Assembly (NCBI RefSeq): GCF_045037415.1
Contig: NZ_CP173438.1
DNA: 64,000 nt
From: Escherichia coli
Lineage (GTDB): Bacteria; Pseudomonadota; Gammaproteobacteria; Enterobacterales; Enterobacteriaceae
Reading direction: 5' to 3' (one strand)
Below the pieces are notes generated by a model that worked only from the letters and a program-made list of their open reading frames with translations, ran no database searches and had not been told where the DNA came from. A program made the position numbers and the translations under genes. This document shows, one piece after another, positions 44,130 to 50,961 of the stretch (position 1 is its first letter; every line of letters begins with the position of its first letter).

Positions 44130-45194
44130 TTAACTGTATGCATGTAGCGTACGTTGGCAAAGTGCCGAACGTACGCAATCCTCTTTACCGAATCGGACGA
44201 TCCCGACCATTTCATCCTCTTCGAAACGTTCCAGCGCGTCACTTAATCCGGAGCGCACGCCGCGAGGCAAATCGCATTGCGTGATATCACCGTTGACGAT
44301 AACCGTCACGTTCTCCCCGAGGCGGGTTAAAAACATTTTCATTTGCGCGGCAGTCACATTCTGCGCCTCGTCAAGAATGACGACTGCATTTTCAAAGGTA
44401 CGTCCACGCATATAGGCGAACGGCGCAATTTCCACCTTCCCTATTTCCGGTCGCAGGCAGTACTGCATAAAGGAAGCCCCTAAGCGACGGACCAGCACGT
44501 CGTAGACCGGGCGAAAATAGGGAGCAAACTTTTCTGCGATATCACCAGGTAAGAAACCAAGATCTTCATCGGCTTGCAGAACTGGACGGGTGACGATAAT
44601 CCTGTCAACATCCTTATGTATCAGGGCCTCTGCCGCTTTTGCTGCGCTGATCCAGGTTTTTCCGCACCCGGCTTCACCCGTGGCAAATATCAGCTGCTTA
44701 CTCTCAATAGCCTTCAGATAGTGCAATTGCGCTTCATTTCGCGCGAGGATGGGCGAGGTATCGCGACTGTCGCGGGCCATACCAATGGCTTCTACGCCGC
44801 TCATTTGCACAAGCGAGGTGACCGATTCTTCTTCACGCTGCTTATGGCTGCGCGAATCCCGTCTCAGCACACGTTTTGCCTCGCGACGAGCTTTGATCAC
44901 TGCTTTTTGTCTTCCCATGGAGAGCACCTTGAGTTGTTTGTATTCATCACACGCGCCGTTGGCAGCGCGATTATGCGCACGAACATCAGAGGGTTGGCTT
45001 CCTTGTAAGCCATAGTTTGCTTTTGGATAAAATGCCGAAAAACGGCTACGCGCACCGTTTACGGCGTCGGTAACACATGAAAAGAAAGGATGAGGTTGAA
45101 AATACAAAGTGACGAGATGACTACCGGAGGAGAAATCTCCGCGAGTGGTGGCGCGCTGATTCTCTAAAACATGTCCAGTACAGGACGTTACCAT
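44130..45194 (-). CDS. phoH: PhoH, phosphate starvation-inducible ATPase (354 aa)
   Basis: Protein MVTSCTGHVLENQRATTRGDFSSGSHLVTLYF... with Walker A GEAGCGKT; ATG at 45194. Confidence 0.93.
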   Translation of the reverse strand: MVTSCTGHVLENQRATTRGDFSSGSHLVTLYFQPHPFFSCVTDAVNGARSRFSAFYPKANYGLQGSQPSDVRAHNRAANGACDEYKQLKVLSMGRQKAVIKARREAKRVLRRDSRSHKQREEESVTSLVQMSGVEAIGMARDSRDTSPILARNEAQLHYLKAIESKQLIFATGEAGCGKTWISAAKAAEALIHKDVDRIIVTRPVLQADEDLGFLPGDIAEKFAPYFRPVYDVLVRRLGASFMQYCLRPEIGKVEIAPFAYMRGRTFENAVVILDEAQNVTAAQMKMFLTRLGENVTVIVNGDITQCDLPRGVRSGLSDALERFEEDEMVGIVRFGKEDCVRSALCQRTLHAYS

Positions 45195-45362: not shown

Positions 45363-45410
45363 GATGAAAAAAGCTGTGTGCTTTCAGCAGGATTCGCGGT
45401 ACTGGTAAAA

Positions 45411-45540
45411 GCTTGCCGGATGCGGCGTGAACGCCTTATCCGGCCTACCGACCCGCACCGATTGTAGGCATGATAAGACGCGCAAGCGTCGCATCAGCGC
45501 ACGAACGCCTGGTGCGGCGTAAACGCCTTATACGCCTAAA
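45411..45540. repeat. Cluster of REP (repetitive extragenic palindromic) units
   Basis: gcttgccggatgcggcgtgaacgccttatccggcctac, gtaggcatgataagacgcgcaagcgtcgcatcagcgc and cgcctggtgcggcgtaaacgccttatacgcc between phoH and efeB. Confidence 0.8.
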
Positions 45541-45544
45541 AACA

Positions 45545-46816
45545 TTAAACCCGCAATAATGCGCTTCCGAGATAATCGTTCGCGTCCTTCACACCCGGCA
45601 GCGCAAAGAAATAGCCGCCACCGATAGGTTTGACATATTCCTCCAGCGCCTCGCCATTCAACCTTTTTTGTACTGTCAGGAAGCCCTTTTCCAGATCGTG
45701 TTGGTAGCAGACAAACAGTAGCCCCATATCGAGTTGCCCGGAATTGGTGACGCCCAACGAATAACTGTAGCCACGACGCAGCATCAGGCTGGACTCGCTC
45801 TCCGCCGTGCGGGGATTCGCCAGCCGGATATGGCTGTCCAGCGCAATCACCTTCCCTTCCGGATCGCTAGCGTAATCGGGAACATCATGCTCATGCTGCA
45901 TGCCCAGCGGCGCACCGGTTTGCTTATCACGACCAAATATCGTCTGCTGCTCTTTCAGCGGCGTTCTGTCCCAAAATTCCACTCGAAACTGAATCAAGCG
46001 TACTGCCTGATAGCTGCCACCGATTGTCCACGCAGGCTCCTGCTGATCTGCCGTCACCCACACCACTTTTTGCATCAACTTCGCATTCTGGCTATCGGGA
46101 TTGGCGGTGCCGTCTTTAAAGCCCAGCAAATTTATCGGCGTCTCTTTGCCTTTACTACGCGCTGCGTGGTCGGAAATAAACCCTTCCCGCTTCCAGCGCA
46201 CGCTGAGCAAATCCGGCGTGTGTTTGATGATATCGCGCAGCGCATGGATCACCGTGTCCTGGGTGTTGGCGCAAATTTGTAGCAACACATCACCATGACA
46301 TAACGCCGCATCCAGCGAGTCGTTGGGGAAACGCGTCATCTTCTGCAACTTTTTTGGCATCTGTGGCGCAAGGCCAAAGCGCTCATCAAACAATGAGTGA
46401 CCCACCGATAACGTGATGGTGAGATTATCGGGCGCAATGTAGCCGCCAAGAATGCCGGAATCGAGTGGTGGCAGGCGCGGATTTGGCGTTTCTGGTGCCG
46501 CTCCGCCCTGAGTCAGAAAAGCAAAACGCTGAGTCAACAAGCGAAACAACCGTTCAAGATCGGCTTTATCGCTGGCAAGCACATCAAACGCCACCAGCAT
46601 CATTGCAGCCTGTTGTGGTGTCAGGATCCCTGCCTGATGCTCACCATAAAACGGCTGTTTCTCATTGCGTGCATCCGGTGAAAGCGTACCCGGCGCACTT
46701 TGCGTTTTTTGTGCATGAGCAACCGGACAACTTCCCGCCAGCGCCAGCGCACCAATCCCTTTCAGTAAACGTCGGCGTGACGGTTCATTCACGCCGTTTT
46801 CATCTTCATACTGCAT
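45545..46816 (-). CDS. efeB: Tat-exported Dyp-type haem peroxidase EfeB (YcdB), 423 aa
   Basis: Protein [36 protein letters not shown]... has a twin-arginine signal (SRRRLLKG); ATG at 46816. Confidence 0.95.
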
Positions 46817-46821
46817 AACGC

Positions 46822-47949
46822 TTAGTCCAGCCCCAGCACACCACGAAGTTGCGCCAGATCTTCCGCCAGCGCAGTAATCGGTCCTTTCAGTGCGTTCCGG
46901 TCGGCATCGGTCAGTTTGTCGTAATTTTCAAAACCCTCTTTAGTGCGGTATTTCGCCAGAATGGTATCGACCTTTTTGAAGTTGGCATCGACTTTTGCCA
47001 ACAGTTCCGGATTCGCTTTTTGTAGTTGTGGACGCAGCAGATCGACAATTTTCTGCGAGCCTTCAACGTTAGCCTGGAAATCCCACAGATCGGTGTGGCT
47101 GTAGCGATCTTCTTCACCGCTGATTTTGCTGGCCGCCACTTCCTCAATCAGTCCGGCTGCACCGCCGACCACTTTTGAAGGAGGGAAAGCCAGTTCACTG
47201 ATGCGTTTTTGCAAATCGACCACATCGGTATAAAGCTGGTCAGCATACTTATCCATCCCTTTGGTGGTGTTATCGCCAAACAATGCTTTTTCCAGACGGT
47301 GGAAACCGGTGAATTTTGGATCGGCGGCTTTTTGCTCGTAATCATCTTCACGGGCGTCAATGCTGCCATCCAGATCGGAGAACAGTTCAGCAATCGGTTC
47401 GATGCGCTCATAGTGCTGCCGCGTCGGCGCATACAGTGCTTTCGCTTTTTCGATATCGCCTGCTTTAATAGCGTCGGTAAAGGCTTTGGTGTCGGTCACC
47501 AGTTGCGTGGTTTCCGCCATGACATACGCTTTATATGCAGTAATTGCACCACCAAGACTTAACAGCGCATCACTTTGCGCCGCATCCGCCGTTGCTTCAC
47601 CTTTGACGATCAACTTCCCTTTCGGGTTAGTCAGCAGACCGCAGGTCATATCGTATTCGCCAGGCTGTAAATTCGCCGTCATTTTCTGGCTAAAACCAGG
47701 GGCGATATTTTCCCGCTCTTCCACCACCATCACGCCTTTGAGGATCTCCCACTCCAGCGCCTTCTGGCTGTGGTTCTGAATAATGAACTGTGTTTTCCCG
47801 GCGTTAACCGTAATGGTCATCGGCTCGCACTGCTTATCTGTCACAGTGACTTTGACTTGCGGAATATCGGCGGCGTTAGCCATAAAAGCAGAAGAGAACA
47901 GCGCAGCCACGCTCAACTGCAATGCGTTACGACGGAAGTTAATGGTCAT
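46822..47949 (-). CDS. efeO: Periplasmic iron-uptake component EfeO (YcdO), 375 aa
   Basis: Protein [44 protein letters not shown]... is EfeO; ATG at 47949. Confidence 0.95.
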
Positions 47950-48006
47950 GACGAGACTATCCCTTTAAAGTATGTTGTAACTAAGCAAGAGTTTGCGTCG
48001 TATTTG

Positions 48007-48837
48007 CTACACGGAGCGGGACGCAGTCGCCCCTGCGCGTGGTGGCAGAACAAATGCCACCAGCGCCGGGATGAGATAAATAAACCAGACGGCGACTTCG
48101 CTGACGCTCGGTGCTTCCTGATAGCCAAAAATCCCTTCCATCAGTGTGCCAAACAGCGAGTGAGTTGAGAGCACCGCGCTCATATCGAAGGCGATTTCCT
48201 GAAAGTGGTTCCACAATCCGGCTTCATGAAATGCGCGAATGGCACCAGCTGCCAGCCCTGCGGCGACGAAGAGAATAAACAGACTGGTCCATTTAAAAAA
48301 TGCACCAAGATTGAGGCGAATACCGCCCCAGTAGAGCAGGAAGCCAAGCACCACGGCTGTAGCAAGACCGAGCATTGCACCCAGCGGCGGCCAGACCCCG
48401 ACATCTTGTTGAAATGCCGCCAGCAGGAAAAAGACCGACTCCAGCCCTTCCCTTGCAACGGCAAAAAAGACCATCATCACCAGCGCCCAGCCATGATGAT
48501 TTCCACGCTGCAATGCGCTATCGACCGCCTGCTCCAGTTGTACTTTGACGTTGCGCGACACTTTGCGCATCCAGAAAACCATCCAGGTAAGGATCACCAC
48601 GGCGATCACCGCCACAATGCCTTCAAACAGTTCCTGTTCTTTTTGCGGAAATTCGCCGGTGGTTTCGTTAATGAAGATACCCAAGCCCAGGCACAACGCA
48701 GCGGCAAGCAACACGCCAATCCACATTACACCAATCCATCGGCCTCGCTGGGTACGCTTAAGATAGCTGGCAATCAAACTGACAATCAGCGCGGCTTCAA
48801 GTCCTTCGCGCAACATAATGAGAAACGGAACAAACAT
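48007..48837 (-). CDS. efeU: Ferrous iron permease EfeU (Ftr1 family), 276 aa, intact reading frame
   Basis: Protein MFVPFLIMLREGLEAALIVSLIASYLKRTQRGRWIGVMW... with REGLE motifs; uninterrupted frame from ATG at 48837 to the stop at 48007. Confidence 0.92.
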   Translation of the reverse strand: MFVPFLIMLREGLEAALIVSLIASYLKRTQRGRWIGVMWIGVLLAAALCLGLGIFINETTGEFPQKEQELFEGIVAVIAVVILTWMVFWMRKVSRNVKVQLEQAVDSALQRGNHHGWALVMMVFFAVAREGLESVFFLLAAFQQDVGVWPPLGAMLGLATAVVLGFLLYWGGIRLNLGAFFKWTSLFILFVAAGLAAGAIRAFHEAGLWNHFQEIAFDMSAVLSTHSLFGTLMEGIFGYQEAPSVSEVAVWFIYLIPALVAFVLPPRAGATASRSV

Positions 48838-49056
48838 GCCACCCACCCTTAAACGTTTTTCTTAGTCAATCTATGCAAAGAAAAGTAAATCGCAGTGATA
48901 GCGATTATCATTACGATGAAGAAAAATACAAGTGAAATGTAGTGATAATGATGAGAAGATGTAAAAATATTTTGAGAAAAAACGCAGAGGGCAATCACTG
49001 ATTGCCCTCTGCCTGCTTCCTGTTATGACGTGAAATTTTCGGTAAAACGCCTTCCC

Positions 49057-50565
<1,509 letters not shown>

Positions 50566-50751
50566 CTAAAGTCTCCAAAAAATTATTATCGGCAATGTCG
50601 AAACTTGCCGTTATATCTGCCACCGGAACGGGGTAACAGAGTTTATGTTTTACCAGGGCGACCGTATCCTGCCGGAAGCGCTGGTTATTCACAATCGATT
50701 TAACACACCATTTACATTAAATTTTAGTGCTCAGCGACACTATTTTTCATC

Positions 50752-50961
50752 AGGTTGCACTCTCTCACATTTTTTGCGGTTGCACCTTTCAAAAATGTTA
50801 ACTGCCGCAGAGAAAAAGTCTGAGTTATTTTTTTAATCCCTGTCATATCGATTTCGTTTATTAACATTTCATTCATTTTTAAGCTTGCTACGCAGGTCAC
50901 ATTTAACATGGTTGCACAAAGTTGCAACATCATGGATATTTCACGATAACGTTAAGTTGCA
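50752..50961. promoter_or_regulatory. put control region: five GTTGCA PutA operator motifs between divergent putP and putA
   Basis: GTTGCA at 50752, 50779, 50911, 50921 and 50956; the 50921 copy is part of the palindrome gttgcaac. PutA autorepression through GTTGCA operators is established. Confidence 0.75.

Follow-up and report, generated by a model that had tools for sequence, protein, structure and literature searches.

An intact efeU frame in the efeUOB operon of a non-K-12 Escherichia coli

The stretch of E. coli DNA analysed here (64,000 nucleotides, hereafter called the window) very probably carries an ordinary wild-type efeUOB operon with an intact iron permease gene; the source strain is not K-12 and apparently has an ST131-type B2 background. 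The efeU frame is uninterrupted, it lacks the single-nucleotide deletion that inactivates the gene in K-12, and the three encoded proteins are almost identical to those of strains that represent known EfeUOB systems.

Reading frame, protein family and operon layout

The efeU gene is a single open frame on the minus strand of the window, from ATG 48837-48835 to TAG 48009-48007. It is 831 nt long (276 codons plus the TAG stop) and contains no internal stops. A sequence-only reading of this DNA had reported an uninterrupted frame from the ATG at 48837 to the stop at 48007, and the list of open reading frames and the sequence agree on this; the 276-codon frame is the right reading and its coordinates had been given exactly. 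Neither the list of open reading frames nor the alignment with K-12 reveals an overlooked frameshift or premature stop. The longest mechanical frame at this position opens three codons earlier, at GTG 48846. We favour the ATG because in the RefSeq annotation of SK1144 the identical gene, named efeU (WP_000497959.1), starts at this codon, and because a Shine-Dalgarno-like AAGGG lies 8 nt before ATG 48837 but directly abuts GTG 48846. Three frames that overlap efeU or run antisense to it (48205-48852, plus strand; 47770-48168, plus strand; 48180-48464, minus strand) were rejected as mechanical; none has a Pfam match. Since efeU has a match in 5,417 of the 5,426 complete E. coli genomes that formed our population set, a chance frame is excluded. 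The three genes of the operon are:

48007-48837, minus strand: efeU, Ftr1/OFeT-type inner-membrane iron permease (basis: open frame, Pfam, NCBIfam, motifs and an identical annotated gene)
46822-47949, minus strand: efeO, periplasmic protein with cupredoxin and M75 (imelysin) domains, 375 aa
45545-46816, minus strand: efeB, Tat-exported DyP-type haem peroxidase/deferrochelatase, 423 aa

The EfeU protein matches Pfam PF03239 (FTR1) over residues 1-275 of 276 with 298.8 bits (cut-off 25.3, E 5e-89). It also scores 331.3 bits against NCBIfam NF041756, the EfeU equivalog (cut-off 255), and 348.8 bits against TIGR00145 (cut-off 303.8). REGLE motifs are present twice, at residues 10-14 and 129-133, both within hydrophobic segments; they are of the REXXE type, the signature by which this family handles iron. 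The description of the product as an Ftr1-type permease with REGLE motifs is thus borne out by family scores above the curated cut-offs and by the two motifs. Kyte-Doolittle analysis over 19 residues, a crude method, gave six segments at or above 1.6 (approximately residues 5-23, 38-56, 70-88, 152-170, 185-203 and 248-266); a seventh (approximately 119-137), which bears a REGLE motif, reaches 1.59 and is therefore just below the threshold. This predicted pattern fits the seven-helix Ftr1/OFeT layout. A sequence search of the PDB with EfeU detected no solved relative, and residue-level checks were therefore limited to the motifs.

For both partner proteins, E. coli structures of nearly identical sequence have been solved. 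EfeO contains the Pfam domains Cupredoxin_1 (1e-24) and Peptidase_M75 (1.5e-42), scores 480 bits against the NCBIfam EfeO equivalog and matches the EfeO structure 7wgu with an E value of 6e-228. It has a signal-like N-terminal sequence, and an HxxE motif (HRLE) is located at residue 217. EfeB contains both the N- and the C-terminal Dyp_perox domain and reaches 617.5 bits (cut-off 428) against TIGR01412, for which NCBIfam gives the name deferrochelatase/peroxidase; its E values with the structures 2y4f and 3o72 are about 1e-265. The twin-arginine motif SRRRLL (residues 13-18), GFKDG (232-236) and the residues D235, H329 and R347 are all present. The latter three are presumably the catalytic residues, in the numbering of the O157 EfeB structure paper, the title of which names Asp235.

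All three genes are encoded on the minus strand, with 57 nt between the efeU stop and the efeO start and 5 nt between the efeO stop and the efeB start. The location of efeU directly upstream of efeO and efeB, which had also been described, is therefore confirmed, and both downstream genes are intact. The order efeU-efeO-efeB matches that in the annotated records of K-12, SK1144, O157:H7 and ABU 83972. Upstream of efeU lies putP (49057-50565) and downstream of efeB lies phoH, and the order of the neighbourhood, putA-putP-efeUOB-phoH-pgaD, is the same in annotated genomes. Past the efeB stop, the minus strand of 45400-45544 contains REP-like palindromic units, for instance GCCGGATAAGGCGTTCACGCCGCATCCGGC; a scan of 45400-49200 found no canonical hairpin plus T-run terminator after efeB.

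Two neighbouring genes are annotated differently among genomes. The phoH frame (44130-45194, minus strand) extends over 354 aa, in agreement with the 1,065 nt annotated in MG1655, and PGAP gives only 789 nt (262 aa) in other records, so the choice of the start codon differs among annotations. Between putA and putP, a 69-aa frame (50724-50933, minus strand) corresponds, as compared by size and relative position, to a 210-nt PGAP 'hypothetical protein' of K-12, SK1144 and ABU 83972; the MG1655 annotation has the tiny ymdG in this interval instead.

The K-12 frameshift and its distribution

In K-12 MG1655 the orthologous locus is located between putP and efeO, as in the window. There, efeU is annotated as the pseudogene b4490 (830 nt), and the gene is labelled 'frameshifted' in another K-12 record. 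Global pairwise alignment of the efeU gene of the window with b4490 revealed 18 substitutions over 831 nt and one gap (97.8% nucleotide identity); over a 1-kb efeU query K-12 and the window share only 97.4% identity. The K-12 allele is thus not identical across the frame. The gap falls on the following position:

48731-48732, minus strand: GG of efeU codon 36 (GGT), of which only one G is present in K-12 (alignment with b4490)

Loss of the single G in codon 36 turns the K-12 product into ...W34 I35 V36 with a stop at codon 37 (frame 0 reads ...RGRWIV and then stops). Re-insertion of the G restores a K-12 EfeU that is identical to the EfeU of the window at 273 of 276 positions. The earlier statement that K-12 efeU is cryptic through a frameshift holds, with the G missing from codon 36 and b4490 annotated as a pseudogene, and the pairwise alignment that had been proposed as a check located the frameshift as predicted.

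EfeUOB (YcdNOB) is reported to function in O157:H7 and to be cryptic in K-12 (Cao et al. 2007, Mol Microbiol 65:857, cited after secondary sources). The O157:H7 strain compared here is 86-24, not the strain used by Cao et al. (2007). The gene content and gene order of its operon agree with the window, and its proteins are identical to those of the window at 273 of 276 (EfeU), 371 of 375 (EfeO) and 419 of 423 (EfeB) positions; the EfeU changes V148I, V263A and V276A are all conservative. As a proxy for Nissle 1917 we used ABU 83972, taken to be of the ST73 lineage as well. This B2 strain has an intact Ftr1-like permease that is identical to the EfeU of the window at 274 of 276 positions (the changes M8I and V148I are conservative), and between putP and efeU it hardly differs from the window. 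The Nissle 1917 EfeU (YcdN) itself is reported to be a ferrous permease (Grosse et al. 2006, Mol Microbiol 62:120). Altogether, EfeO and EfeB of the window are approximately 99% identical to those of 86-24 and ABU 83972, and all EfeU changes relative to O157:H7, repaired K-12 and ABU 83972 are V/I, V/A or M/I exchanges.

The frequency of the K-12 deletion was determined with an 81-nt probe, an exact match to which counts as the K-12 allele; the count covers this one disabling mutation of efeU. Exact matches were found in 368 of the 5,417 genomes with efeU (approximately 7%), and the other 5,049 differ from the probe. In the non-K-12 rows among the matches listed, 81 query bases are aligned to 82 record bases, showing that the extra G is present. 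The 60 exact matches listed of the 368 are all, or nearly all, K-12 laboratory strains, identified by names such as MG1655, DH5alpha, DH1, C600, J53 and NCM3722 or by a laboratory label on the record. The BL21-derived C43(DE3) has an efeU that aligns without a net indel. Thus, approximately 93% of the complete E. coli genomes are without the K-12 deletion; an intact efeU is ordinary and the K-12 lineage is the exception.

Some genomes depart from this picture. The isolate TUM12357 (NZ_CP134370.1, chicken meat, 5.03 Mb) is not a laboratory strain and carries the same efeU frameshift as K-12; its PutA, PutP, EfeO and EfeB proteins are identical to those of K-12. The deletion may therefore be older than the domestication of K-12, or may be present in wild K-12-like lineages. 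An efeU match is lacking in nine of the 5,426 complete genomes. Seven of the efeU matches fall on plasmid-classed records, and two copies occur in at least one genome.

Across the 20 kb of the segment 40000-60000, many isolates from human clinical sources match the window with 100% identity, among them one recorded as O25b:H4. This record and several of the identical strains are presumably ST131, phylogroup B2, and the source strain is apparently of such an ST131-type B2 background. A non-K-12 background had been deduced from the intact efeU. This is correct, but the gene is a weak marker: because approximately 93% of the complete genomes lack the K-12 deletion, an intact efeU excludes only the K-12 lineage. 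Over efeU, SK1144 (NZ_AP018784.2) and the window share 100% identity.

The region upstream of efeU

The spacer between putP and efeU (48838-49056) is 219 nt long in the window and contains three candidate elements:

48984-49012, minus strand: intrinsic-terminator-like hairpin with T-run (13-bp stem with 8 G-C pairs, then GTTTTTTCTC)
48897-48915, minus strand: Fur-box-like site CGTAATGATAATCGCTATC, 15/19 matches to GATAATGATAATCATTATC, at -78 to -60 from the efeU ATG
48875-48889, plus strand: CpxR-box-like site GCAAAGAAAAGTAAA, 9/10 matches to GTAAA-N5-GTAAA, between the Fur box and the ATG

The two protein-binding sites are predictions based on consensus matching and on secondary sources. The Fur-box-like site is the sole one that reaches 15/19 within the 64 kb; it is conserved in four strains besides that of the window, with an identical sequence in K-12, O157:H7 and ABU 83972. 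A computational search in an ExPEC study likewise placed a Fur box upstream of efeU. Three CpxR-like sites of 9/10 quality occur in the 64 kb, and the one at 48875-48889 is, taken alone, only suggestive. The literature describes repression of efeU by CpxR and its regulation by Fur. The terminator-like hairpin directly follows putP and parts it from the efeU promoter region. A scan of 45400-49200 for the sigma-70 consensus found no convincing promoter; the single weak site (48936-48965, TTTACA-18-TACATT) is no more than shuffled sequences give.

The 78 nt before the ATG equal the K-12 and O157:H7 86-24 sequences except for one base, at -26 (48863), which is A in the window and C in K-12, 86-24 and ABU 83972. 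The proximal 81 nt with A at -26 are common to 545 of the 5,417 genomes (approximately 10%), and the A looks like a lineage marker. Beyond approximately 80 nt upstream of the ATG, the window diverges from both K-12 and O157:H7. In K-12 the spacer is 542 nt long, and the surplus consists of a TRIP1b repeat, described in PMC10888264, and REP-like sequence. In the window and in ABU 83972, both with a 219-nt spacer, the putP terminator runs straight into the efeU upstream block without TRIP1b or REP. O157:H7 86-24 differs from the window in the distal upstream region, where an extra 1.3-kb gene is located between putP and efeU (1,344 nt, opposite strand, annotated as 'hypothetical protein'; spacer approximately 2.7 kb). 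SK1144 has an IS1A inserted just after putP, approximately 280 nt upstream of efeU, which is lacking in the window. Because TRIP1b, IS1 and an extra gene are found there, the putP-efeU interval is, judged from these comparisons, a hotspot of structural variation.

A deletion that shortened the spacer and removed the efeU promoter was considered and rejected: the 78 nt next to the gene are conserved, and ABU 83972 and many genomes have the short spacer as well. K-12 is the one with the extra TRIP1b repeat. There is a slim chance that the short spacer without TRIP1b and REP, together with the A at -26, gives efeUOB of ST131-type strains an expression unlike that in K-12 and O157:H7. If so, altered leader stability or altered occupancy by CpxR or Fur could aid iron acquisition in acidic niches such as urine.

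Probable function and alternative readings

EfeUOB is very likely functional in the source strain because its EfeU is identical at 273 of 276 positions to that of O157:H7 and at 274 of 276 to that of ABU 83972, and because the literature describes working systems. We therefore consider the earlier judgement 'probably functional' a reasonable one to draw from these identities and the literature. For transport activity and regulation in this strain we infer by analogy with O157:H7, Nissle 1917 and yeast Ftr1p/Fet3p the following course. Low iron and low pH would lift repression by Fe-Fur and by CpxR, the latter acting at high pH. EfeO would be exported by Sec and EfeB by Tat, and periplasmic Fe2+ would be captured, and probably oxidised, by EfeO/EfeB. 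EfeU would then pass the iron across the inner membrane into the cytoplasm through its REXXE motifs. The system would thus act mainly under low-iron, acidic conditions. One review places its activity at low pH and low iron under aerobic conditions, and another states that it acts both aerobically and anaerobically. Of the growth conditions that had been proposed for testing an efeUOB mutant, low pH and low iron thus stand, but anaerobiosis is not required according to the reviews.

The permease of the yeast Ftr1p/Fet3p (OFeT) system resembles EfeU in the Pfam FTR1 domain, the seven helices (predicted for EfeU) and the paired REXXE motifs. It differs in size, EfeU having 276 aa and Ftr1p approximately 45 kDa, and in its partner: yeast has the multicopper oxidase Fet3p, which is lacking in the bacterial system, where EfeO and the haem peroxidase EfeB are found instead.

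The literature debates whether Fe2+, Fe3+ or haem iron is the substrate and disputes the roles of EfeO and EfeB. A functional operon whose main role is not the import of free Fe2+, but haem iron extraction by EfeB or Fe3+ import by EfeU, is possible but doubtful here. It would agree with the NCBIfam name of EfeB, with the statement in reviews that EfeB may promote haem iron extraction even in K-12 with its broken EfeU, and with a reviewed proposal that EfeU carries Fe3+ after oxidation by EfeO. Cao et al. (2007) and Grosse et al. (2006) count against it. These chemistries look alike in sequence, and such a role would refine the mechanism and contradict nothing in the finding of an ordinary intact operon.

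That the frame is intact and yet efeUOB is only weakly expressed in this lineage, or regulated in another way, and contributes little in practice, appears very improbable. The divergence of the spacer beyond approximately -80, a putP terminator approximately 150 nt from the ATG, the restriction of the A at -26 to 545 of the 5,417 genomes and the missing strong sigma-70 match speak for such a change. However, the stretch from -78 to -1 with its Fur and CpxR-like boxes otherwise equals that of K-12 and O157:H7, and the same short spacer in ABU 83972, another B2 strain, indicates a widespread arrangement and not a recent lesion. In addition, efeU, efeO and efeB are reported to be serum-induced in an ExPEC strain, and the 99% protein identity of the three coding sequences argues for continued selection. 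A spurious G, i.e., a sequencing or assembly error that hides a gene frameshifted like that of K-12, is close to impossible and was rejected on the population alleles and the independent identical assemblies. No support for an error was found at 48731-48732, where the site is merely a GG doublet. The 5,049 of 5,417 genomes without an exact K-12 match, with the extra G in the rows listed, and the many independent assemblies that match the window at 100% over 20 kb argue against it, and with 18 other efeU differences from K-12 the gene is no miscalled copy of the K-12 one.

Both the K-12 frameshift and the functional allele of other E. coli are already known, having been published in 2006-2007 and entered in the RefSeq annotation, and the finding has little importance beyond correct annotation. 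The window is to be annotated with a complete efeUOB operon, and the strain is not K-12. Conclusions on iron uptake drawn from K-12, in which the system is dead, are not transferable to the source strain. In this respect the laboratory reference strain is the exception among E. coli: approximately 7% of the complete genomes carry the deletion, and the matches listed are nearly all laboratory derivatives of K-12.
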